Source: Gammaproteobacteria bacterium
GTDB taxonomy: Bacteria; Pseudomonadota; Gammaproteobacteria; GCA-001735895
DNA length: 64,000 bases
NCBI GenBank assembly: GCA_050298595.1
Contig: JBNKUM010000100.1
Location: 1-64,000 of the forward strand
Reading direction: 5' to 3'
A program made the translations under genes and the position numbers. Of this stretch, positions 3,445 through 13,969 are shown in pieces. Below the pieces are notes generated by a model that worked only from the letters and a program-made list of their open reading frames with translations, was not told the DNA's origin and made no database searches. Within the stretch, counting starts at the first letter, position 1. Every line of letters begins with the position of its first letter.

Positions 3445-3501
3445 ATGTCGCATTCAAAAGGATTTACCCCATTGCTTAAAGCAGACATAGCTTTGTTCTG
3501 A
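3445..3501 (+). CDS. 18-aa leader mini-ORF (MSHSKGFTPLLKADIALF) coupled to the TPR gene
   Basis: AAGGA upstream of ATG 3445; its TGA overlaps the ATG at 3501 (TGATG). Confidence 0.4.
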   Translation: MSHSKGFTPLLKADIALF

Positions 3502-4934
3502 TGGGAACATTTGATCAACAGAACCAGCACGTTGAGCATCAGCAAAATGCTGACACCATCAATAATTATGGTGTGCCCTTTGAGCAATACAAAGCAGACC
3601 TGACAGAGAAGGAAAAAGAGATTCGCTGCCTGCTGAAAAATGCAGCCCTGGACGAGAGGGAGAAAGCAGAACTCAATCAAAAACTTGCAAGGCTTGAGCA
3701 ACTCCGTCTGGATGAGCGAGCGAGTTACGAAGCCCATAAGAAAGACCTGGAAGAACGACTGAATCGCTTAGATCAACTCAGCGGAAAGGTTCCAGAAAAG
3801 CTCATTAAAGAAGCTAAACTCGCACTGGCAAAAGGCGATAACGTAAAAGCAGACCAACTCTTTAGCCAGGTAGAAGAGCAGGCAGATCCACATATAGCCG
3901 CTGCCGCAGAAGCGGCTTACCAGCGTGGCAAATTGTCACAAGATGCCCTTCAATATCATGAAGCATTCCAGCACTACCAACGCGCCATTCAACTAACCCC
4001 GAACAATCCAGAATATCTGGAATCAGCAGCATCAATGGCAAAAACCGTGGCGCAATACTCCAAAGCGATCGATTGGAATGAACAGGCGCTTAAACTCTAC
4101 CTCGAACAGAATGGCGAAGATTCAGCAGATGTAGCGGGGCTCAGGAATAACCTGGGTTTAGCCTGGCAGGCGCTCGGCAAGTATGAGAAGGCGATCGGTT
4201 ATTATGAGCAGGCACTGGCAAGTAACCTCAAGACCTACGGCGAGGACCATCCAGATGTGGCGATTAACCGCAACAACCTGGGCTTAGCCTGGTATGTCCT
4301 CGGCAAGTATGAGAAGGCGATCGCTTATTACGAGCAGGCACTGGCGAGTGGCCTCAAGACCTACAGTGAGGACCACCCCAGTGTAGCCACACGTCGCAAC
4401 AACCTGGGCTTAGCCTGGTATGCCCTCGGCAAGTATGAGAAGGCGATCGCTTATTACGAGCAGGCGCTGGCAAGTGACCTCAGGACCTACGGTGAGAACC
4501 ACCCCAGTGTAGCCAGTGACCGCAACAACCTGGGTTCAGCCTGGCATGCCCTCGGCAAGTATGAGAAGGCGATCGGTTATTTTGAGAAGGCGCTAGAGAG
4601 TGACCTCAAGACCTACGGTGAGGACCACCCTGATGTGGCGATTGAACGCAACAACCTGGGTATGGTCTGGAAGGCCCTCGGCGAGCATGACAAGGCGATC
4701 GGTTATTTGGAGCAGGCGCTAGAGAGTGACCTCAAGACCTACGGCGAGGACCACCCTGATGTGGCGATTGACCGCAACAACCTGGGTATGGCCTGGAAGG
4801 CCCTCGGCAAGTATGAGAAGGCGATCGGTTATCATGAACAGGCACTGGCGACTTTTCGAAAAGTACTGGGTGAAGACCATCATAGAACCATTGCCGCAGC
4901 TAACAATCTCGAAGCTGCCAGGGCTCAGCAATAG
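3501..4934 (+). CDS. Tetratricopeptide repeat protein with Q/N-rich N-terminal motif (paralog 1)
   Basis: 477 aa; six 42-aa kinesin-light-chain-type TPR units (NNLG.AW..LG.YEKAI.YYEQAL...LKTYGEDHP); coiled-coil-like N-terminal half. Confidence 0.93.
   Translation: MGTFDQQNQHVEHQQNADTINNYGVPFEQYKADLTEKEKEIRCLLKNAALDEREKAELNQKLARLEQLRLDERASYEAHKKDLEERLNRLDQLSGKVPEKLIKEAKLALAKGDNVKADQLFSQVEEQADPHIAAAAEAAYQRGKLSQDALQYHEAFQHYQRAIQLTPNNPEYLESAASMAKTVAQYSKAIDWNEQALKLYLEQNGEDSADVAGLRNNLGLAWQALGKYEKAIGYYEQALASNLKTYGEDHPDVAINRNNLGLAWYVLGKYEKAIAYYEQALASGLKTYSEDHPSVATRRNNLGLAWYALGKYEKAIAYYEQALASDLRTYGENHPSVASDRNNLGSAWHALGKYEKAIGYFEKALESDLKTYGEDHPDVAIERNNLGMVWKALGEHDKAIGYLEQALESDLKTYGEDHPDVAIDRNNLGMAWKALGKYEKAIGYHEQALATFRKVLGEDHHRTIAAANNLEAARAQQ
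4128..4883 (+). repeat. Intragenic tandem array of six 126-bp units
   Basis: Recurring AACAACCTGGG...GAGAAGGCGATCG...CTCAAGACCTAC every 126 bp. Confidence 0.95.
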
Positions 4935-5001
4935 CTGGAAAACAAAAGGTTTTTAAATACTCGGATAGCATTCAAATCAAACCACTGGGAGGTAAATAGT
5001 C

Positions 5002-5340
5002 ATGGCTACTTTCAATCAACAGGGACAATCTGTACACACCCAATATAACGCCGAAACGATTAATTTTAATAAGGTGAGTACAGCCGATGATTTTCGGCAA
5101 CAATTGCTAAGTGTCCAGAGCGAATTGCTAAAAGCGAGGGAAGCAGGGGCGGTAACAGATGATCAGGCCATTGATGCTGAATACCAATTGAATAAAGCAT
5201 TGGCTCAGGCTAAAAAGCCTGCGCCAGACAGGAAAACATTGGTAGAGCATTTATCCTCTGCTAAAGACCTGGTCTCCGGAGTCAGTGGATTAGCAACGGC
5301 TATCGCTGGTGCAATTACAGCGGTTGGCGTGTTGTTCTGA
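5002..5340 (+). CDS. Small hypothetical protein with Q/N-rich N-terminal motif, helical core and hydrophobic C-terminal helix
   Basis: 112 aa; strong RBS GGGAGG; stop overlaps the next ATG; first 21 aa align with the TPR proteins' N-termini. Confidence 0.85.
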   Translation: MATFNQQGQSVHTQYNAETINFNKVSTADDFRQQLLSVQSELLKAREAGAVTDDQAIDAEYQLNKALAQAKKPAPDRKTLVEHLSSAKDLVSGVSGLATAIAGAITAVGVLF

Positions 5341-6773
5341 TGGGAACGTTTGATCAACAGAACCAGCATGTTGAGCATCAGCAAAATGCTGACACCATCA
5401 ATAATTATGGCGTGCCCTTTGAGCAATACAAAGCAGAACTGACAGAGAAGGAAAAAGAGATTCGCCGCCTGCTGAAAAATGCTGCCCTGGACGAGAGGGA
5501 GAAAGCAGAACTCAATCAAAAACTTGCCAAGGTTGAACAACTCCGTCTGGATGAGCAAGCGAGCTACGAAGCCCATAAGAAAGACCTGGAAGAACGACTG
5601 AATCGCTTAGATCAACTCAGCGGAAAGGTTCCAGAAAATCTCATTAAAGAAGCTAAACTCGCACTGGCAAAAGGCGATAACGTAAAAGCTGACCAACTCT
5701 TTAGCCAGGTAGAAGAGCAGGCAGATCCACATATAGCCGCTGCCGCAGAAGCGGCTTACCAGCGTGGCAAATTGTCAGAAGATGCTATTCAATATCATGA
5801 AGCTTTCCAGCACTACCAACGAGCTATTCTACTAACCCCGGACAATCCAGAATATCTGGCATCAGCAGCATCAATGGCATATACCCTCGCGCAATACTCC
5901 AAAGCGATCGACTGGAATGAACAGGCGCTTGAACTCTACCTCGAACAGGATGGCGAAGATTCAGCAGATGTGGCGCGGCTCAGGAACAACCTGGGTTTAG
6001 CCTGGTATGCCCTCGGCGAGTATGAGAAGGCGATCGGTTATTTGGAGAAGGCACTGACAAGTGTCCTCAAGACCTACGGTGAGGACCACCCTCATGTAGC
6101 TATTTATCGCAGCAACCTGGGCTTAACATGGCAGGCCCTCGGCAAGTATGACAAGGCGATCGGTTATTTTGAGCAGGCGCTGGCGAGTGGCCTCAAGACC
6201 TATGGCGAGGACCATCCAAATGTGGCGATTAACCGCAACAACCTGGGTTCAGCCTGGCATGGCCTCGGCGAGTATGATAAGGCGATCGGTTGCTATGAGC
6301 AGGCGCTGGCGAGTGACCTTAGGACCTACGACGAGGATCACCCCAGTGTAGCCCGTGATCGCAACAACCTGGGTTTGGCCTGGAAGAACCTCGGCGAGTA
6401 TGAGAAGGCGATCGCTTGTTACGAGCAGGCGCTGTCGAGTGACCTCAAGACCTATGGTGAGGACCACCCCAGTGTAGCCCGTGACCGCAACAACCTGGGT
6501 TCAGCCTGGCATGGCCTCGGCAAGTATGAGAGGGCGATCGGTTATTATGAGCAGGCACTGGCGAGTGACCTCAAGACCTACGGTGAGGAACACCCTGATG
6601 TAGCCACACGTCGCAACAACCTGGGTTTGGCCTGGAAGAACCTCGGCGAGTATGAGAAGGCGATCGCTTATTACGAGCAGGCGCTGGTATCTTTACGAAA
6701 AGTACTGGGTGAAGACCATCCTTATACAAAACAAGCAACAAAAAATCTCGAAGCTGCCAGGGCTCAGCAATAG
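5340..6773 (+). CDS. Tetratricopeptide repeat protein with Q/N-rich N-terminal motif (paralog 2)
   Basis: 477 aa; N-terminal half nearly identical to 3501-4934; six 42-aa TPR units with different variable residues. Confidence 0.93.
   Translation: MGTFDQQNQHVEHQQNADTINNYGVPFEQYKAELTEKEKEIRRLLKNAALDEREKAELNQKLAKVEQLRLDEQASYEAHKKDLEERLNRLDQLSGKVPENLIKEAKLALAKGDNVKADQLFSQVEEQADPHIAAAAEAAYQRGKLSEDAIQYHEAFQHYQRAILLTPDNPEYLASAASMAYTLAQYSKAIDWNEQALELYLEQDGEDSADVARLRNNLGLAWYALGEYEKAIGYLEKALTSVLKTYGEDHPHVAIYRSNLGLTWQALGKYDKAIGYFEQALASGLKTYGEDHPNVAINRNNLGSAWHGLGEYDKAIGCYEQALASDLRTYDEDHPSVARDRNNLGLAWKNLGEYEKAIACYEQALSSDLKTYGEDHPSVARDRNNLGSAWHGLGKYERAIGYYEQALASDLKTYGEEHPDVATRRNNLGLAWKNLGEYEKAIAYYEQALVSLRKVLGEDHPYTKQATKNLEAARAQQ
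5967..6722 (+). repeat. Intragenic tandem array of six 126-bp units
   Basis: Same unit as 4128-4883. Confidence 0.95.
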
Positions 6774-7315
6774 CTGGAAAATTTTGATAAAAACTTGCTG
6801 GTAGACATAAAAACCGATAGGCAATCAGCGAGAGGGATAGCGAGGGAGACAGCGGATTCGCCATACAAATAACGGTGGATAGAATCAAACAAAAGCATAA
6901 AGGGACAGAGTACAAAAGCAGTAAATAAGCCCATGATATCTTTTTCCTGTTGCCCCGAACCTCCGATGTAACTCTGAAACTGAGGGATGTTCTCGCAGTT
7001 CATAGAACCCGAAGAAAAAGCCCGAGTCAGAATCTTCTCGATATCTTTAGCAGAGTAAGGACGGCTGTTAGAAAAAGAAAAACAGGTTTTGTCTTCTTCC
7101 TGGAAATCAAGGGCAGACTTCTTGAAGCGTTTTTTACGACAAAAATGTATGGCTCCACATGCTGCCGCCTCTTTCTCAGTCCCTAGAATAATGATTTGCG
7201 TTACCAGATAAATGCCCCCACCTATATCCATTATCCCGGCAATGAATTCAGGGATAGATCCAGAAATAATGGCTAAAAAGGATATAGAAGACAGGAATAC
7301 TTCCATATTCAGCAA
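6764..7315 (-). CDS. Doubtful hypothetical ORF, possibly a membrane protein or a degenerate gene
   Basis: 183-codon open frame with hydrophobic stretches; no recognisable motif and a weak start. Confidence 0.25.
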   Translation of the reverse strand: MLNMEVFLSSISFLAIISGSIPEFIAGIMDIGGGIYLVTQIIILGTEKEAAACGAIHFCRKKRFKKSALDFQEEDKTCFSFSNSRPYSAKDIEKILTRAFSSGSMNCENIPQFQSYIGGSGQQEKDIMGLFTAFVLCPFMLLFDSIHRYLYGESAVSLAIPLADCLSVFMSTSKFLSKFSSYC

Positions 7316-7539
7316 AAGTATTTATTACCCCCTGAAAAAATAGATAGTTCAAGTTTTTCAAATAGTTTAACTCCTTGTTACCGGTGGAAAAAAGCCACTT
7401 TATCTGAGTTTTTTAACGGGCTTTCAAGGTGCGGCATCTTATGATTATTAACGACCAGAGTTGATATTAAAAACAGCAAAAATCAGGCCATGAATATAAC
7501 ATTGTGTTTCGATGGTTATATTTCCTTGATGCATGTAAG

Positions 7540-7732: not shown

Positions 7733-8719
7733 ATGAATAATCAATTAATAGATCAATGCGGGCGACATATTAATTATCTGCGGCTTTCAGTGACAGATCG
7801 TTGTGATCTGCGTTGCAAATACTGTATGCCCAAAGGTTTCAGGGATTTTTCTGCACCTCAGGAGTGGTTGAATTTTGATGAGATAGAAAAAACGGTGTCA
7901 TTGTTTGCACAGGCTGGTATTGAGCATCTACGCATTACCGGGGGAGAACCACTGGTACGTGAAAACATCGATCAGCTCATTCAACGCCTCTCCATTATTC
8001 CAGGGATAAAGGATTTGTCTTTATCGACCAACGCGGTACGTCTTGAAAAATATGCCGAAAGATTGAAACAGGCGGGTGTGCAACGATTGAATGTCAGTCT
8101 CGATTCACTGGATGAACATCGCTATGCAGAGATCACTGGTGGTGGAAAATTAAGCAAGGTTTTAAATGGGCTGCAACAGGCGAAACAGTTGGGTCTGGGC
8201 CCGATCAAAATTAATTGTGTGTTAATGAAAGGTTTCAATGAAGATGAAATTGATCAAATGCTTGAATATTGTGCAAAGCATGGTTTCACCCTGAGGTTGA
8301 TTGAAACTATGCCTATTGGCGATACTGGACGCTCTGCTCAATCCCAATATATGAGTCTCAATATCATCAAGGATCAGCTAAGTCAAAAATACGATTTGAT
8401 CCCTGATCTTATGCCTGGGGCAGGGCCGGCACGCTATTTTCGTTTGCAGGGCAGTTCTACCAGGATTGGATTTATTACACCTATTTCTCAGCATTTTTGT
8501 GAAACCTGTAATCGTTTAAGGCTTTCCTGTGAAGGCGATATTTTTACCTGCCTGGGTGATGAAACACGTTATCCATTGGGGCAGTATCTACGTGCAGGGC
8601 AAAGTGATGCTCAGATGCTGGAGCATATCCATAAGGCGATTAATCTCAAGCCAGAGAAGCATGAATTTAAAAATGATCGACAGAGAGTTGTCCGCCTGAT
8701 GTCGATGACGGGTGGATAG
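7733..8719 (+). CDS. moaA: GTP 3',8-cyclase MoaA (radical SAM)
   Basis: YLRLSVTDRCDLRCKYC, ITGGEP, FCETCNRLR...C and C-terminal MSMTGG. Confidence 0.97.
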   Translation: MNNQLIDQCGRHINYLRLSVTDRCDLRCKYCMPKGFRDFSAPQEWLNFDEIEKTVSLFAQAGIEHLRITGGEPLVRENIDQLIQRLSIIPGIKDLSLSTNAVRLEKYAERLKQAGVQRLNVSLDSLDEHRYAEITGGGKLSKVLNGLQQAKQLGLGPIKINCVLMKGFNEDEIDQMLEYCAKHGFTLRLIETMPIGDTGRSAQSQYMSLNIIKDQLSQKYDLIPDLMPGAGPARYFRLQGSSTRIGFITPISQHFCETCNRLRLSCEGDIFTCLGDETRYPLGQYLRAGQSDAQMLEHIHKAINLKPEKHEFKNDRQRVVRLMSMTGG

Positions 8720-8830
8720 CTGAGTCCGTTAGCAAACACTAACGTGATGCTTGCACTGTCGTTTGTAGTTTCTCAAATTTGGTTGCCAGTGCTACCGTCA
8801 TTTTTTCTTAATAGAGAAAATGTCTCAGTT
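8718..8830 (+). ncRNA. Candidate structured RNA (four-way junction) in the moaA 3' region
   Basis: Closing stem 8718-8724/8824-8830 enclosing hairpins 8727-8744, 8753-8792 and 8799-8822; G-U pairs favour the + strand. Confidence 0.45.
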
Positions 8831-8862
8831 AACCGGGTGTTTCTCAACATCCGGTTTTTTTT
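8831..8862 (+). terminator. Rho-independent terminator
   Basis: AACCGGGTGTT-TCTC-AACATCCGGTT followed by a T run. Confidence 0.85.
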
Positions 8863-8928
8863 GAGTGAAACAAATGTGGGTTCCGTGATAATTTGAACTT
8901 GAATTAAGTGAGTAGAAGAGTATCAAAA

Positions 8929-9384
8929 ATGGCGCAATATAGCTTTGTAGAAGATCCGCGGGGTGGCGTAGGGATGGAAATAATCGCCAGGGATCATGAT
9001 GATATGTTTAATGCTGCGACTGCAGCCTTATGTCTTTACATGTGGGATCAGGACACTGTAGAGGAGCGTGAAGAGGTCGAGGTTTCATGGTATGGATTCG
9101 ATATACCAACGACGGTAGTGGGGCTGCTTTCTGAAATTCTGTTCCGGATGGATAATGATGGTTGGGTGTTTAAACGTTTTGTAACGCGCAGTATTGAAGA
9201 AGTTGATGATCTGGATGAGCGGCATAGGAAAAAACAGTTAAAAATTACAGGTACCGCCTATGGCGAAAAGTACCGAGCTGATAAACATATTCCACGTTTT
9301 CCTGTACAGGCAATATTATTGCCCAGGCTCAAGGTAAAAAAAGTTGAACAAGGGGTGCGCCTCTATTGCGTGCTGGATGCATGA
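8929..9384 (+). CDS. Archease-like protein with divergent signature motifs
   Basis: Colinear with the archease pattern (F.AA..AL, LL.E.LF..D..G..F, TAYGE...KH, terminal VLD); ATG 8929 preferred over GTG 8908. Confidence 0.7.
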   Translation: MAQYSFVEDPRGGVGMEIIARDHDDMFNAATAALCLYMWDQDTVEEREEVEVSWYGFDIPTTVVGLLSEILFRMDNDGWVFKRFVTRSIEEVDDLDERHRKKQLKITGTAYGEKYRADKHIPRFPVQAILLPRLKVKKVEQGVRLYCVLDA

Positions 9385-9394
9385 TTTTTATCGT

Positions 9395-9464
9395 GTTACT
9401 AAAAAGTAACGCTTCCAGGCATTTCCAGAGATTTTTTACCATTGCTCCGTTACTGATTGGTAAC
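9395..9464. promoter_or_regulatory. Putative enhancer (UAS) pair for a sigma54 activator
   Basis: GTTAC-TAAAAA-GTAAC at 9395-9410 and GTTAC-TGATTG-GTAAC at 9449-9464, the same motif as upstream of moaA. Confidence 0.7.
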
Positions 9465-9560
9465 CATGAATTCGTAATATCCACATGAATTGCGATGTAA
9501 TTATTTGCTAATAAATAATTAACCATAAAATACAGTCACTTAAGTTTGTTTTTTCTCCTT

Positions 9561-9576
9561 TGGCATAAGGGTTGCT
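9561..9576 (+). promoter_or_regulatory. Sigma54 -24/-12 promoter of the molybdoenzyme operon
   Basis: TGGCATAAGGGTTGCT with exact GG-N10-GC spacing. Confidence 0.8.
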
Positions 9577-9666
9577 TAGAGTAATCAAACTTCATTGTTT
9601 TCAATGGGGTTATTACATACGCACCGAAATATTTCGGTCGAATAAAAATCCTTAGGAGGAATTCTT

Positions 9667-10389
9667 ATGTCAGTTGGTCTCCAGGCTGAACCATCTTTAG
9701 GAGTACCGGGTAAAAAGCGCTGGGCCATGGTTATCGACCTACGTCGTTGTATAGGTTGTATGGCCTGTGTCTGCGCAGATAAGGCTGAATATGATGTCCC
9801 ACTTGGCGTGTGGCGCACCATGGTTAAAGTCAAAGATACCGGAACTTACCCTAATACCAAGCGTCATTTTATGCCGCGACTTTGTAATCATTGCGATAAT
9901 CCACCTTGTGTACGTAACTGCCCAACAGAGGCAACTTATAAACATGAAGATGGTTTTGTATTGCAAAGATATGATCGCTGTATCGCTTGCAGAACCTGTA
10001 TTGCTGCTTGCCCTTATAACGCACGTCATGTCCTTCCAAAAAACAGGGACAGAGTAAAAATTAGTGGCGTTATTGATAAGTGCACATTCTGTAATCATCG
10101 CGTTGAAAAGGGGCTTGCCCCTGCCTGTGTGCAGACCTGTCTAGGTCGTTCGAGAATTTTTGGTGACCTTAATGATCCGAAAAGTGAAGTGTCTCGTCTG
10201 GTTGCTCGTCACAAAACGGTCGTGTTAAAGCCTGACAAAGGTACCTCACCACAGGTTTATTATGTAAAGCCTGATCGAGCAATGACTGAGCAGGTATTCA
10301 GTGCCCCGAAATCTTATGCAGCGCGTGCTGATGAAGCAGCGTTCTATAAGCATAACCGTGGCAGTAAATTCTTTTCTGGCGTTCTATAG
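9667..10389 (+). CDS. Four-cluster 4Fe-4S electron transfer subunit (PsrB/NrfC/TtrB/ArrB family)
   Basis: CIGCMAC, CNHCDNPPC, CIACRTC and CTFC motifs; RBS AGGAGG. Confidence 0.95.
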   Translation: MSVGLQAEPSLGVPGKKRWAMVIDLRRCIGCMACVCADKAEYDVPLGVWRTMVKVKDTGTYPNTKRHFMPRLCNHCDNPPCVRNCPTEATYKHEDGFVLQRYDRCIACRTCIAACPYNARHVLPKNRDRVKISGVIDKCTFCNHRVEKGLAPACVQTCLGRSRIFGDLNDPKSEVSRLVARHKTVVLKPDKGTSPQVYYVKPDRAMTEQVFSAPKSYAARADEAAFYKHNRGSKFFSGVL

Positions 10390-10399
10390 GAGACATATC

Positions 10400-11287
10400 A
10401 TGTTTGAATACATGGACTACAACATCGCTCCTTGGGGGCACGAAATTGTCATTTACTTTTTTCTGATTGGTGCTGCAGCAATGACGTTTGTATATGCTGC
10501 TGCACCGGCGGTATTTGGTGATACGCTCGGTGGCGCAGCTAAGGCCATGGAGCCTTTCCAGAAAACGGGAATGATTATCTCATTGATATTGCTGCTTGTC
10601 TGTGCACCGCTACTGATCACTGATCTGGGTCAGCCGGGGCGCTTCCTGTACCCGATTATCCATTTTCACTGGACTTCGCCATTGTCCTGGGGTTCTTTGT
10701 TTCTACCACTGTTTGGTGCCTGTATCGTGGGTTACTACTTTGGTCTGCTAAAAGAGAATGCCGGCTTAATGCGCCTGACCGGTATTCTTGGGTCATTGCT
10801 GGCCTTATCTATGCCTTTATATACGGGGCTGGATTTGATGGTGAATCAGTCGCGTGAATTGTGGAGTAACCCAACAATACCTTTGCTGTTTGTTATTTTG
10901 TCGGTCAGTTCAGGTACCGCTGTGGTAGCAGTAACGCAAATGCTTCGAGGCGGAATAAATGAAAAGGTGGCAGAGTTTCTGCACCTGTTTTTATATATCT
11001 CGTTGTCTGTCACATTGGCACTATTTCTCGCTGAGTGGGTGGTGTTAAATTATGGATCAGGTGAAAAACAGCAGGCCTATGCCATCATCAATCAGCAGTT
11101 TTCTATGCAGTGGTGGGGCTTAACATTCTTTGTCGGAATTCTGATCCCTCTGGCGATGATCGCTGTTCCAAGAATTGGCCGTAATCCGATGGTGTTGACA
11201 CTTGCGTCTGTGCTGAGTCTGGTGGGTGCTTTTACCTTCAGAGAAGTATTGATCTACGCAGGTCAACTTACCATGATCAATTTCTAA
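10400..11287 (+). CDS. NrfD/PsrC family membrane anchor / quinol-interacting subunit
   Basis: WG..I..YFFL.G, DLGQP.RF, SPLSWG and YTG motifs; ~8 TM segments; ATG 10400 has RBS AGGAG. Confidence 0.92.
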   Translation: MFEYMDYNIAPWGHEIVIYFFLIGAAAMTFVYAAAPAVFGDTLGGAAKAMEPFQKTGMIISLILLLVCAPLLITDLGQPGRFLYPIIHFHWTSPLSWGSLFLPLFGACIVGYYFGLLKENAGLMRLTGILGSLLALSMPLYTGLDLMVNQSRELWSNPTIPLLFVILSVSSGTAVVAVTQMLRGGINEKVAEFLHLFLYISLSVTLALFLAEWVVLNYGSGEKQQAYAIINQQFSMQWWGLTFFVGILIPLAMIAVPRIGRNPMVLTLASVLSLVGAFTFREVLIYAGQLTMINF

Positions 11288-11299
11288 GGAGATATAATA

Positions 11300-13969
11300 A
11301 TGAACGAAACATTAAAATTTTCCAGACGCTCCTTCATGAAATTGGGTGGAGCGATTGGAGGGGCTGCTTCGGTGGTTACTTTAGGTAGCAGCCGCCTGGA
11401 AGCGATGGAACAGGATCTGGGCGGAAAAGACTTTTCGCCTACCACGGGTGCCGCTAGAACGGCGGTACCTTATACCTGCCTGGCCTGTAATATCGAAGAC
11501 GGTGGTGTGGCTTATGTAGAGAATGGTCGCATCGTTAAGCTTGAAGGTAATATGGATCATCCAAATACGCGCGGAAAACTGTGCGCCAAGGGTAATTCCG
11601 GTTATCTGCATGTGTACGACCCTGATCGTATCATGACGCCTCTATTACGCACCGGTAAGCGTGGAGAGGGTAAGTGGAAGCGTATCTCTTACGCTGAAGC
11701 GGCCACGATTCTGGCAGGTAAATTGCGGGAAGTGATTGATCGCTCTAATGAGCATGATGATCCGGCAATTCTGAATGAAATAGTGTTCAAATATGGTCGT
11801 GATAGAACGGGTGGTGCGGTTGGTCGATTTATGCACGCGCTTGGCTCCAATACAATTATCAATCATACAAATATCTGTGAATCTTCCAAAAAAGTTGGTC
11901 TTGAGCCTTCATGGGGACCAGATATTGAGTCATGCGACTGGGCGAATACTAAATACATACTGAACTTTGGTTCAAATGTACTTGAAACGGCTTATTTCAT
12001 GAACCCGAATGCGCAGCGCCTGGTTGATGGCGTGGTCGGTAACAAAGCCAAGCTGGTAAGCTTTGATGTGCGCATGTCGAATACATCAGGTTTTGCCGAT
12101 GAGGCTTTTTATCCATACCCTGGCACCGATGGTGCCATCGCCCTGGCCATGTGCCATGTGATTATGAATGAGGGGCTGTATGACGCGGATTTTATCCGTG
12201 ACTGGACCAATGTCAGTGTTGAACAGTTGATCGATCATCTGAAGCCGTATACGCCTGAGTATGCAGAAGATGAGTCTGGTATCCCGGCTAAGGATATACG
12301 TCGTATTGCTCGCGAATTTGCCACTACCAAGCCGGCAACAACATTCTCCTATCGTGGTCCTGCCAAGCACATTTGGGGTGCTTATCAGGAAGCCTCAATT
12401 CATATGATTAATGTGATCACGGGCAATGTTGAAAAGAAAGGTGGTTATTGTCTGCCACGTGGTATGGGCTGGCCTCAACCACAGCCTGAGCCACCCAAGG
12501 GTAAGGCTGCAAGTGTACTGGCTGCGCCACCACTATATCCATTAGCCTCGCATCATGTTTCAACGCATGCACCCTATATGATTAAAAAAGGTGAAGCCAG
12601 GGTATCGGTGTGGATGTCTTACTACGATAACCCGGTTTACACCTATCCTTCGAGTCATGTATGGGATGATCTGCTGCGTGATGAAACAACCATTCCGTTT
12701 TTCACATCATTCAGTCCCTATATGTCTGAAACAACCGAACTGGCCGATCTGATTATTCCGGATGTGACCTATCTTGAACGACATGATCCCGAGTCTATGC
12801 CTAGTGGATTATATCCCTGTCTATCCATTCGCCAGCCGGTCACCAAGCCATTGGCGGGTACACAGGAGTTCCGTCAAACGCTGATAGATGTGATGCAAAA
12901 GGTCGATCCAGATGGCTCTCTGGGGATGAAGAAATACTTTGCTTTCAATACGGTTGAAGACTGGATGAAAGCTCATTTTGATAATATCCCCGGCCTGAAA
13001 GAAGAAGGTGGCTGGAACCACATGAAGAAAAAAGGAGTTTGGCCTATCTACGGTGAAGTGGATAAGACTAGCGCCAAGCTGGTCGATAGAAATGGCAATG
13101 AAGTAGAGCCAGAGTATGGTCTGTATACCAAAGAATTGTCTGCGGCTGATATGTCAGGTGCCACAGTCGATAGTGAAGGTCTGATCATGAAAGATGGAAA
13201 AGTAATCGGAGTGAATGCCAACGGCAAAAACATGGTGGGTTTTGGAACACCTTCTCACCGGATTGAAATCTATAAAGAAAGCTTTAAGAAATATGGATTC
13301 AATCCTATGCCGGTTTATAAGCGACTGGAATCTCGTAACAAGAAGCCGGATGAACTGGTGCTCACTACCTATAAGGTGAATGTGCATACGCAAAGTCGAA
13401 CCGCTTCGCTGAAGTTTCTGGCCGAGCTGTACCATAAAAATCCAGCCTGGATTAACCCAAAAACAGCCAATTCTAGAGGTATTAAGGATGGTGATTTGAT
13501 CAGGGTGACTTCAACGCTGGGGCATATTGTGACTCGTGCTCATGTGACACAGGGTATCCATCCTGATGTGGTAGCGATTTCAACCGCCTGTGGTCATAAC
13601 GCCTATGGTCGCCTGGCCCAGCTGAAACAGAAACAGCAGGCTGCTGACTGGGCGCAAGGTGGTGATCCGGATATCACCAATAATGTCTGGTGGGATGATA
13701 AAGGGGTGCATCCGAATCCCATTATCAAGCTCGCCGTTGATCCTATTGGTGGTTCGCAGGGTTGGTACGATACTGTCGTTACCGTATCCAAAGCTCAAGC
13801 CGGAGATAAATATGGTGATACCCAGGCGAGTGTTGAGGAATCTATGAAGGATTATGAAGAGACACTACGTTATGCCTATAACGGTGATTTGCATCGTAAA
13901 CACCATCAGGAAGTGGATATAGACTGGGATAATTTACCACATCCAGCTATGTCATCTGGCGGTCATTAA
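11300..13969 (+). CDS. Periplasmic molybdopterin oxidoreductase catalytic subunit, DMSO-reductase family (Arr/Arx/Anr/Ttr-related; possibly AnrA-like)
   Basis: Tat signal SRRSFMK; N-terminal FeS motif C-x2-C-x3-D-x27-C; NHTNICE (candidate Mo-ligand Cys); PGTDGA; C-terminal bis-MGD binding domain. Confidence 0.92.
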   Translation: MNETLKFSRRSFMKLGGAIGGAASVVTLGSSRLEAMEQDLGGKDFSPTTGAARTAVPYTCLACNIEDGGVAYVENGRIVKLEGNMDHPNTRGKLCAKGNSGYLHVYDPDRIMTPLLRTGKRGEGKWKRISYAEAATILAGKLREVIDRSNEHDDPAILNEIVFKYGRDRTGGAVGRFMHALGSNTIINHTNICESSKKVGLEPSWGPDIESCDWANTKYILNFGSNVLETAYFMNPNAQRLVDGVVGNKAKLVSFDVRMSNTSGFADEAFYPYPGTDGAIALAMCHVIMNEGLYDADFIRDWTNVSVEQLIDHLKPYTPEYAEDESGIPAKDIRRIAREFATTKPATTFSYRGPAKHIWGAYQEASIHMINVITGNVEKKGGYCLPRGMGWPQPQPEPPKGKAASVLAAPPLYPLASHHVSTHAPYMIKKGEARVSVWMSYYDNPVYTYPSSHVWDDLLRDETTIPFFTSFSPYMSETTELADLIIPDVTYLERHDPESMPSGLYPCLSIRQPVTKPLAGTQEFRQTLIDVMQKVDPDGSLGMKKYFAFNTVEDWMKAHFDNIPGLKEEGGWNHMKKKGVWPIYGEVDKTSAKLVDRNGNEVEPEYGLYTKELSAADMSGATVDSEGLIMKDGKVIGVNANGKNMVGFGTPSHRIEIYKESFKKYGFNPMPVYKRLESRNKKPDELVLTTYKVNVHTQSRTASLKFLAELYHKNPAWINPKTANSRGIKDGDLIRVTSTLGHIVTRAHVTQGIHPDVVAISTACGHNAYGRLAQLKQKQQAADWAQGGDPDITNNVWWDDKGVHPNPIIKLAVDPIGGSQGWYDTVVTVSKAQAGDKYGDTQASVEESMKDYEETLRYAYNGDLHRKHHQEVDIDWDNLPHPAMSSGGH

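Follow-up and report, generated by a model that had tools for sequence, protein, structure and literature searches.

Two TPR receptor paralogues and a small four-helix protein sharing a Q/N-rich N-terminal motif: a candidate non-canonical amyloid signalling module in a gammaproteobacterium

The 64,000 nt stretch of DNA analysed here (the window) corresponds to positions 1 to 64,000 of contig JBNKUM010000100.1 in the assembly GCA_050298595.1 of a gammaproteobacterium. It includes a compact locus of three collinear genes, in which two paralogous genes for tetratricopeptide repeat (TPR) proteins, TPR1 and TPR2, flank a gene for a 112 aa protein, here called the small protein. The products of all three begin with a related motif rich in Q and N. 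The coordinates of the genes and their features are listed in Table 1. The original prediction described a duplicated receptor gene around a single small gene that is translationally coupled to the second receptor copy. Both points were confirmed, the first from the open reading frames (ORFs) and the second directly from the sequence, where the TGA of the small gene and the ATG of TPR2 overlap by one base (TGATG). The mini-ORF that leads into TPR1 may be the relic of such a coupling junction and might have kept TPR1 translationally coupled since the duplication, though this is tentative. Promoter and terminator scans returned sites that were not more numerous than in shuffled sequence.

TPR1 and TPR2 both start with MGTFDQQNQHVEHQQNADTIN and the small protein starts with MATFNQQGQSVHTQYNAETIN. 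The identity of 13 of 21 residues given in the original prediction was reproduced from the ORF translations, as was the observation that most of the shared residues use different codons (9 of the 13, with 38 of the 63 nucleotides identical). With the initial Met left out, 12 of 20 residues match, compared with at most 9 of 20 for the 1,847,728 other 21-residue windows taken from ORFs of at least 100 aa in the same genome. A profile hidden Markov model (HMM) of the motif, built only from the N-termini of homologues of the small protein, was also run over 56,617 ORFs of this genome. The small protein scored 57 bits and TPR1 and TPR2 obtained the scores shown in Table 1 (expect value, E, about 3e-4), while the next best match reached 11.1 bits (E 0.9). 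With this HMM the motif was found in no ORF of the 5.49-Mb genome beyond these three. The sharing of the motif is real and is not due to chance.

The motif contains 15-20 % Q, 12 % N, 0.2-0.3 % P, 0.6 % L and 1.5 % K, compared with 4.6, 4.5, 4.0, 10.3 and 4.8 %, respectively, for the genome. It lies at the N-terminus of both partners, as had been proposed, and in the AlphaFold2 (AF2) models of TPR2 and of the small protein it is disordered and outside the folded domains. The window motifs contain no G-phi-Q-phi-G core when read directly and no RHIM match in Pfam, and neither a hydrophobic core nor signal-peptide features could be read from the sequence.

Table 1. Features of the three-gene locus, in window positions
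Feature	Position	Strand	Comment
TPR1, receptor paralogue 1, 477 aa	3501-4934	+	N-terminal motif, two helices and TPR array
Small protein, 112 aa, predicted effector	5002-5340	+	N-terminal motif and four-helix domain
TPR2, receptor paralogue 2, 477 aa	5340-6773	+	Translationally coupled to small gene
Receptor-side motif, TPR1 residues 1-21	3501-3563	+	Motif HMM 22.2 bits
Receptor-side motif, TPR2 residues 1-21	5340-5402	+	Motif HMM 22.1 bits
Effector-side motif, small protein residues 1-24	5002-5073	+	Disordered in AF2; conserved across the family
Four-helix domain of small protein (helices 28-47, 53-70, 77-90 and 95-111)	5083-5337	+	AF2, mean pLDDT 83.4
C-terminal helix of small protein, last 19 residues, Gly/Ala/Ser/Thr-rich, hydrophobic	5281-5337	+	Mean Kyte-Doolittle value 1.98; no charged residue
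Helices 27-45 and 52-91 of TPR2, coiled-coil-like	5418-5612	+	AF2; at the place of the NTPase in NLRs
Six 42-aa TPR_10/TPR_12 repeats, TPR1	4116-4871	+	126-nt period
Six 42-aa TPR repeats, TPR2	5955-6710	+	126-nt period
Repeat D2	3493-3792 and 5332-5631	+	Copies 96 % identical; begins 8 nt before each TPR ATG
Shine-Dalgarno-like GGGAGG	4987-4992	+	9 nt 5' of the small gene ATG; read from the sequence
Mini-ORF, 18 codons	3445-3501	+	TGA overlaps the TPR1 ATG (TGATG); AAGGAA box upstream

Related loci were examined for linkage of the motif to adjacent genes. The set comprised 10 loci from genomes (Ktedonobacteria, Microcoleus, Anaerolineae and Bacteroidota) and 79 from metagenomes, 89 in total, and a 25-position motif HMM, again derived solely from N-termini of small proteins, was run on 6,282 stop-to-stop ORFs of at least 40 aa from these loci and from the first 12 kb of the window. 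The scores were bimodal. Values of about 9 bits or more were seen only for small proteins or for the start of the next ORF downstream, and all others were 5.5 bits or less. Seven of the 89 loci, with less than 150 nt of sequence downstream, were left out of the linkage count. In 66 of the remaining 82, the next ORF on the same strand starts with the motif (HMM score of at least 8 bits), and among the 16 missed by the HMM a divergent motif was recognized by eye in 9 and no motif in 7. The sequence in which the start of the downstream gene overlaps the stop of the small gene is ATGA (39 loci) or TGATG (10 loci). The motif therefore co-occurs in adjacent gene pairs across genomes, in agreement with what had been predicted.

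The two copies of the motif also co-vary. From 72 pair rows, 47 non-identical pairs and then 15 representatives were retained. Among the 15 representatives, the motifs of a pair share 11.5 of 24 positions with each other and 8.0 with those of non-own pairs, and for the 47 pairs the values are 11.2 and 9.4; in neither set did any of 10,000 permutations reach the observed value, in a test that can be inflated by relatedness. Rare motif variants, such as the QVGIQSNSGGDI form / GGDITIG-type inserted repeat and GRDQY repeats, are nevertheless present in both members of the same pair.

Partner proteins were classified using 36 sequences (33 complete and non-redundant ones, TPR2, and the partners in loci L008 and L009, which were added by hand). 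NACHT was found in 17, NB-ARC in 3 and nSTAND5 in 1, and TPR families in about 8. As 21 of the 36 are STAND/NLR proteins, the small gene typically neighbours an NLR-like protein. Across phyla, the pairing is conserved. In one locus (L010:3185-6637, Ktedonobacter robiniae) the small gene is split into parts about 3 kb apart with ORFs between them, and the partner ORF is only 135 aa; this locus is probably disrupted. Large ORFs lie 5' of the pair in Ktedonobacter racemifer (L004), and in an Oceanospirillum metagenome-assembled genome (MAG) described below (L181) a resolvase gene (5729-6280) adjoins the module. Both are hints of carriage by mobile elements.

The small protein belongs to a large family. 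A word-indexed search recovered 23 relatives (alignment A1), with the N-terminal consensus MATFNQQGQxVxxQYNAETINFG followed by the helical domain, and the motif precedes the four-helix domain in all of those that retain the N-terminus (22/23). In an exhaustive profile search, 540 clusters, defined at 50 % identity, were found at E ≤0.001 and 346 of these at E ≤1e-10. Among 149 newly listed representatives, 79 are stand-alone proteins of no more than 135 aa. A further 61 are at least 190 aa long and carry the complete motif and helical domain at the C-terminus, placing the motif between an N-terminal domain and the four-helix domain. The N-terminal part is AbiTii in 21 of the 61, a caspase in 4, EAD1 in 2, and CHAT, EAD7 and DUF2513 in 1 each; for most of the others, it matched no Pfam family. 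AbiTii is described as an N-terminal domain ahead of C-terminal HEPN effectors (PMC3710099), and the four-helix domain in the AbiTii fusions therefore fills the effector slot. Some members have tandem pseudo-repeats of the motif (P0020-type, L070 and L078). In three caspase- or CHAT-related members (P0050, P0056 and P0059), a glycine-rich, GNVSGG-like stretch of beta type stands directly before an FDQRGQ motif and the four-helix domain, so that two motif types are found in tandem.

In the AF2 model of the small protein, residues 1-14 have a predicted local distance difference test (pLDDT) score below 50, and the fold of the remainder is as given in Table 1. One relative, P0019, carries the UniRef name 'DUF4404', but Pfam did not support this name in any of the 23 members of A1 (E ≤0.01). 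The A1 profile had no match below E 0.57 among PDB sequences, and matches in the ESM Atlas were only to clusters of hypothetical proteins.

TPR1 and TPR2 match only TPR-type families in Pfam (TPR_12, E 5e-74 and 1e-64, respectively). No NTPase was found in either by the Pfam scan or in the AF2 model. In that model, which is of TPR2 (mean pLDDT 84), residues 1-29 are disordered (pLDDT below 50) and are followed by a coiled-coil-like helical segment and by an unbroken TPR array running from about residue 99 to the C-terminus. Pfam and AF2 thus agree with the earlier proposal that the receptors lack NACHT/NB-ARC and have a coiled-coil-like segment in that place. This segment is kept in the homologues P0024-P0040. 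In the 42-aa repeats, 16 of the 42 positions are invariant and an entropy of more than 1.3 bits is confined to positions 5, 8, 9, 15, 18, 19, 30, 35 and 37. Well-conserved repeats with few variable positions are the pattern published for NLR-type repeats. The GC content of the TPR repeat regions (4001-6500) is 53-57 %, compared with a genome mean of 45 %, which could reflect the composition of the repeats or a foreign origin.

Residues 1-140 of TPR2 have 17 relatives that are 55-96 % identical, all of them TPR proteins; the 3 for which a source is named are from Gammaproteobacteria MAGs. The same motif is present at the N-terminus of 10, variants of it in 2 and another N/G-rich segment in 1. 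The remaining four (P0028, P0035, P0038 and P0040) have, in place of the motif before the conserved helix, a hydrophobic segment and then a G/N/V-rich stretch of another kind, and in these the receptor may carry the membrane element as a direct fusion. The segment before the conserved helix is thus an exchangeable cassette.

Two loci from genomes prove decisive. In L181, the same 112-aa protein is found with a 440-aa receptor composed of a coiled-coil-like segment and TPRs (CC-TPR), again with a one-base overlap. In a Kangiella MAG (L182, 3512-4750) there is a homologous CC-TPR receptor (50 % identity over residues 21-140), but the upstream gene encodes a helical protein of 132 aa, in which a hydrophobic helix is at the N-terminus and a GVQIG-type motif at the C-terminus. 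This protein matches EAD10 (E 9.5e-5) and RHIM (E 0.0063, residues 112-126) weakly, and its motif matches the N-terminus of the receptor at 8 of 14 residues (E 0.002, for a single comparison). L182 looks like a pair of the BASS3-like kind that has no NTPase. On one and the same receptor backbone, the effector has therefore been exchanged along with its motif, and this places the small protein of the window in a functional slot that is filled elsewhere by a canonical Bell/Bab-like effector. The presence of a Bell/RHIM-type effector beside a homologous CC-TPR receptor also supports the sensor/effector pairing that was originally proposed.

A scan with an 8-residue core pattern returned 64 stretches, and 63 new loci were analysed, of which 36 had no motif context; by our arithmetic about 17 chance matches are expected. 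The scan yielded 13 further proteins with the motif and the four-helix domain. It also located the motif at the C-terminus of a helical ORF ahead of a Zn-ribbon-NACHT gene (L214), near the C-terminus of a caspase (L184) and, in a Methanosaeta MAG (L194), between a helical N-terminal domain and NB-ARC. The motif HMM gives the L194 form only 3.8 bits, as it contains a one-residue indel. Motifs of this type are thus portable cassettes, which also serve in the canonical orientation.

TPR1 and TPR2 are 82 % identical. The duplicated segment extends from 8 nt 5' of each TPR start codon to about 15 nt beyond the stop codon, so the duplication involved the TPR gene but not the small gene. The possibility that part of another small gene persists 5' of TPR1 was considered and ruled out, because no similarity extends further than 8 nt in front of the ATG. 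The paralogues have diverged unequally along the gene. For codons 1-205, the number of synonymous substitutions per site (dS) is 0.116 and that of non-synonymous substitutions (dN) is 0.034, whereas for codons 206-477 dS is 0.34 and dN 0.154. The overall dN/dS of the paralogues is below 1 and positive selection is not claimed.

The nearest named relatives of the host are MAGs of Sedimenticolaceae and other Gammaproteobacteria. The small protein was found in only 1 of 60 other related genomes, a member of the same genus in which it lies in the same locus next to moaA, and the module is therefore an accessory element. When synteny was compared across five genomes of the same genus, the locus was present only in one (G001). 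In the others, the flanking genes are on other contigs or are divergent, and this comparison gave no island boundaries. An ORF of 183 aa with hydrophobic ends (6764-7315, minus strand) converges on TPR2. It has no Pfam family (best match SapA, E 0.033) and lies in a region of low GC content (7001-7500, 38 % compared with 45 % for the genome); it may be part of the same inserted segment. Further downstream (7733-13969), an ordinary cluster of respiratory genes consists of moaA and, after it, genes for a 4Fe-4S protein, a polytopic membrane protein and a molybdopterin oxidoreductase of 889 aa, whose identity to Sedimenticola proteins is 84-85 %.

Short amyloid motifs shared by adjacent genes are known from the BASS systems. 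In BASS motifs, Q, N, G, V and I are over-represented and K, P and L under-represented, and the motifs are found mostly in multicellular bacteria (bioRxiv 10.1101/2020.01.06.895854). The window resembles the Bell/NLR pairs BASS1-10 (Dyrka et al. 2020) in having adjacent, collinear and often overlapping genes, with a motif of about 20-25 aa that is Q/N/G-rich and P/L/K-poor and is common to a small helical protein and the very N-terminus of a repeat-domain receptor, and in the high internal conservation of the TPR repeats. In addition, relatives in Chloroflexota, Cyanobacteria and Bacteroidota have NACHT or NB-ARC partners. However, the effector of the window does not belong to the Bell domains: the Pfam scan matched it to neither EAD10 nor HeLo nor any other family, and no solved structure was matched by sequence or by fold. 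Its motif is N-terminal, or internal before the domain in longer relatives, and its hydrophobic helix is C-terminal, the opposite of the arrangement in Bell proteins. The receptor lacks NB-ARC or NACHT, and the host is close to the gammaproteobacterial family Sedimenticolaceae. The locus thus has the adjacent collinear genes, shared motif, composition and length of the BASS type, but not the NB-ARC/NACHT receptor or an effector (Bell, TIR or CHAT) with the motif at its C-terminus. It falls outside the defined Bell/NLR class, because the motif is not at the C-terminus of a Bell effector and the receptor has no nucleotide-binding oligomerization domain (NOD).

A closer parallel in some respects is Bab/Agp (BASS11), an antiphage abortive infection system of Escherichia coli ECOR25 with a 109-aa effector and a TPR-GreA/B-C-PIN receptor (bioRxiv 10.1101/2024.11.07.622273). 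In both cases adjacent genes of a proteobacterium encode a helical protein of about 110 aa and a TPR receptor without a STAND NTPase, and the common motif is at the N-terminus of the receptor. However, the hydrophobic helix of Bab is N-terminal and its motif C-terminal, Agp carries additional GreA/B-C and PIN domains where the window receptors consist of helices and TPRs, and the window has two receptor paralogues. In HET-S/NWD2 and other fungal pairs (summarized in both preprints cited above and in PMC13506858), the logic is the same, with the N-terminal motif of a receptor templating that of an effector, a helical membrane-targeting domain executing death, and pseudo-repeated motifs in some family members. 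Similarity in sequence or fold was not detected, the order of the effector domains is opposite and the host here is bacterial.

Experimental data exist for one motif of similar form, which was the single relevant hit when full texts were searched for motif strings. A peptide (residues 5-29) of the Methanothrix soehngenii NLR AEB69175.1 shows cross-beta bands in Fourier-transform infrared spectra and Congo-red binding, and is amyloid-like (PMC8086366). The motif of this NLR is outside BASS1-10 ('other BASS'; PMC8086366) and shares the core FDQRGQKV...Q.N.AGD, as matched by eye only; L194 has the same form. Unlike the window motif, that of AEB69175.1 has a Bell protein as its partner, and the orientation is canonical.

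Two other groups of systems were compared. The C-terminal part (about 100 positions) of the PADLOC profiles of PDC-M14B weakly matches the small protein of L004 (E 1.4e-5), P0056 (3.9e-7) and P0058 (8.3e-6), but the small protein of the window had no match to it at E ≤0.01 when the PADLOC profiles were searched. PDC-M14B is about 265 aa long, with an extra N-terminal part, and is listed only as a candidate phage-defence system; a full-text search of the literature found no text naming 'PDC-M14'. In the EAD adaptor pairs described by Kaur et al. (2020, PMC7159879), the effector and the N-terminus of the NTPase have a globular domain in common, unlike the disordered motif of about 21 aa found here. 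The window proteins have no EAD match in Pfam, and EAD1 and EAD7 appear only as the extra N-terminal domains in 3 of the 61 long members. The literature examined does not describe this effector family or an effector with an N-terminal motif, though the BASS supplementary tables, which lay outside the search, could list such pairs.

We consider that the three genes probably form a BASS-type regulated-cell-death or conflict module with a non-canonical layout (probability about 60 %), which would by analogy be filed with the amyloid signalling pairs of BASS/HET-S type. TPR1 and TPR2 would be ligand sensors, each with a Q/N-rich motif of about 21 aa that is free and disordered at the N-terminus. 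Since most differences between the TPR arrays are at a few hypervariable positions, the two probably recognize different or variant targets. Binding of a ligand would cluster the receptors and, without an NTPase module, clustering would have to occur via the helical, coiled-coil-like segment or a multivalent ligand. The clustered N-terminal motifs would then nucleate a cross-beta (beta-arch) assembly that templates the motif of the small protein. Refolding or stacking would free or concentrate the four-helix domain, and its C-terminal helix would attack the membrane, so that the cell is killed or arrested. The shared motif, its conserved linkage and co-variation, its association with NLR, caspase and AbiTii domains and its BASS-like composition are observed; the amyloid templating, the membrane target and the immune role in this scheme, and the label of effector for the small protein, are what we infer. 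The original prediction of an analogous, immune-like system was not contradicted by any of the tests that could be run computationally and is supported.

Several observations weigh against this interpretation. The receptors lack the NTPase that serves as an oligomerization module, and AF2 gives only disorder for the motif peptides. The small protein of the window has no significant match to any Pfam, NCBIfam or PADLOC family, and a Foldseek search of its model against the PDB returned generic helical bundles (best E 0.84) but not HeLo, MLKL or Bab. In the family, the C-terminal helix is mostly amphipathic rather than transmembrane-like. For the 149 listed representatives, the median Kyte-Doolittle value is 1.04 with a median of 3 charged residues, and an uncharged helix with a value of at least 1.6 is found in just 5; a membrane-insertion role is therefore weaker outside the lineage of the window. 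At the variable TPR positions dN/dS is 0.83, i.e. not above 1, compared with 0.21 elsewhere, and these values are descriptive only because the positions were picked from the same data. Many of the metagenome loci are near-identical, and the locus counts given above are not independent. Finally, the neighbours of the module (aldehyde dehydrogenase, TetR, a peroxiredoxin-like gene and moaA) do not constitute a recognizable defence island.

Similar pairing and co-variation are equally expected of any specific interaction motif. The motif could accordingly be a non-amyloid tag for heterotypic docking, by beta-strand addition or as a short linear motif, in a 1:1 or small complex. The sensor/effector pair would then stand, but nothing would be templated or prion-like. 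The lack of beta structure for the motif in AF2 also fits such a tag. However, we regard it as unlikely, because a Q/N/G-enriched and P/L/K-depleted composition and the length are those of published BASS motifs, tandem pseudo-repeats are present in some members, as in HET-s and BASS1/4/6, the homologous receptor in L182 uses a RHIM-like motif, and aggregation of cross-beta character has been reported for the peptide that shares the core (PMC8086366). A complex prediction for TPR2 residues 1-140 and the small protein scored 0.23 against a mark of 0.32 without controls and was used neither way.

The role of the four-helix protein can also be questioned. It could be a regulator or cap (solubilizing or inhibitory) or an adaptor, with killing left to fused domains such as caspases, to AbiTii-linked ones or to unlinked domains. 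The module does follow a caspase, CHAT, AbiTii or other domain in the 61 long representatives, most members of the family have an amphipathic, charged C-terminal helix, and there is no fold likeness to known pore formers. Against this, 79 of the 149 listed representatives stand alone, and where such a protein lies beside an NLR the pair contains no other candidate effector. The C-terminal place in AbiTii proteins is the effector place (PMC3710099), the equivalent slot in L182 holds a Bell/Bab-like domain, and the variant in the window has an uncharged, hydrophobic helix of 19 residues. A regulatory role is, in our view, slightly less likely still than a docking tag. That the motif serves as an N-terminal signal for the sorting, secretion or degradation of co-exported or co-regulated proteins, as its disorder and position at the extreme N-terminus of all three window proteins might suggest, is very improbable, since it is internal in the 61 long representatives, which rules against the secretion signal considered in the original prediction, C-terminal or nearly so in L214 and L184, found with NACHT and NB-ARC partners and devoid of signal-peptide features, and pair-by-pair co-variation is not required by a shared export machine.

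A broader reading can also be put forward, though only tentatively and with rather less confidence. In this reading, the motif and the four-helix domain make up a large class (at least 540 clusters) of cell-death effectors under amyloid control, which is so far undescribed and could be driven by NLRs or by NTPase-free TPR sensors. Its topology would mirror that of HeLo, Bell and Bab, with the switch N-terminal and the membrane-active helix C-terminal. The literature examined on amyloid receptor/effector signalling contains one geometry, in which the motif is N-terminal in the receptor and C-terminal in the effector and the membrane helix of the effector is N-terminal. A methods paper from 2025 and a review from 2026 still give the receptor N-terminus and the effector C-terminus. 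The locus described here and the approximately 540 related clusters add a second geometry and a second, uncharacterized putative effector domain, combined with NLR, caspase, CHAT, AbiTii and EAD proteins, and screens anchored on the C-termini of Bell proteins and on NB-ARC/NACHT neighbours overlook this part of the repertoire. If the reading is correct, templated amyloid signalling would need only ligand-induced clustering and no NOD engine, and duplicated, diversifying receptors that share one effector would constitute a minimal immune network of many sensors and one executioner in a unicellular proteobacterium. As a compact gammaproteobacterial system of three genes, the locus is suited to asking about the orientation of the switch, NTPase-free nucleation and the ligands of the TPR paralogues.

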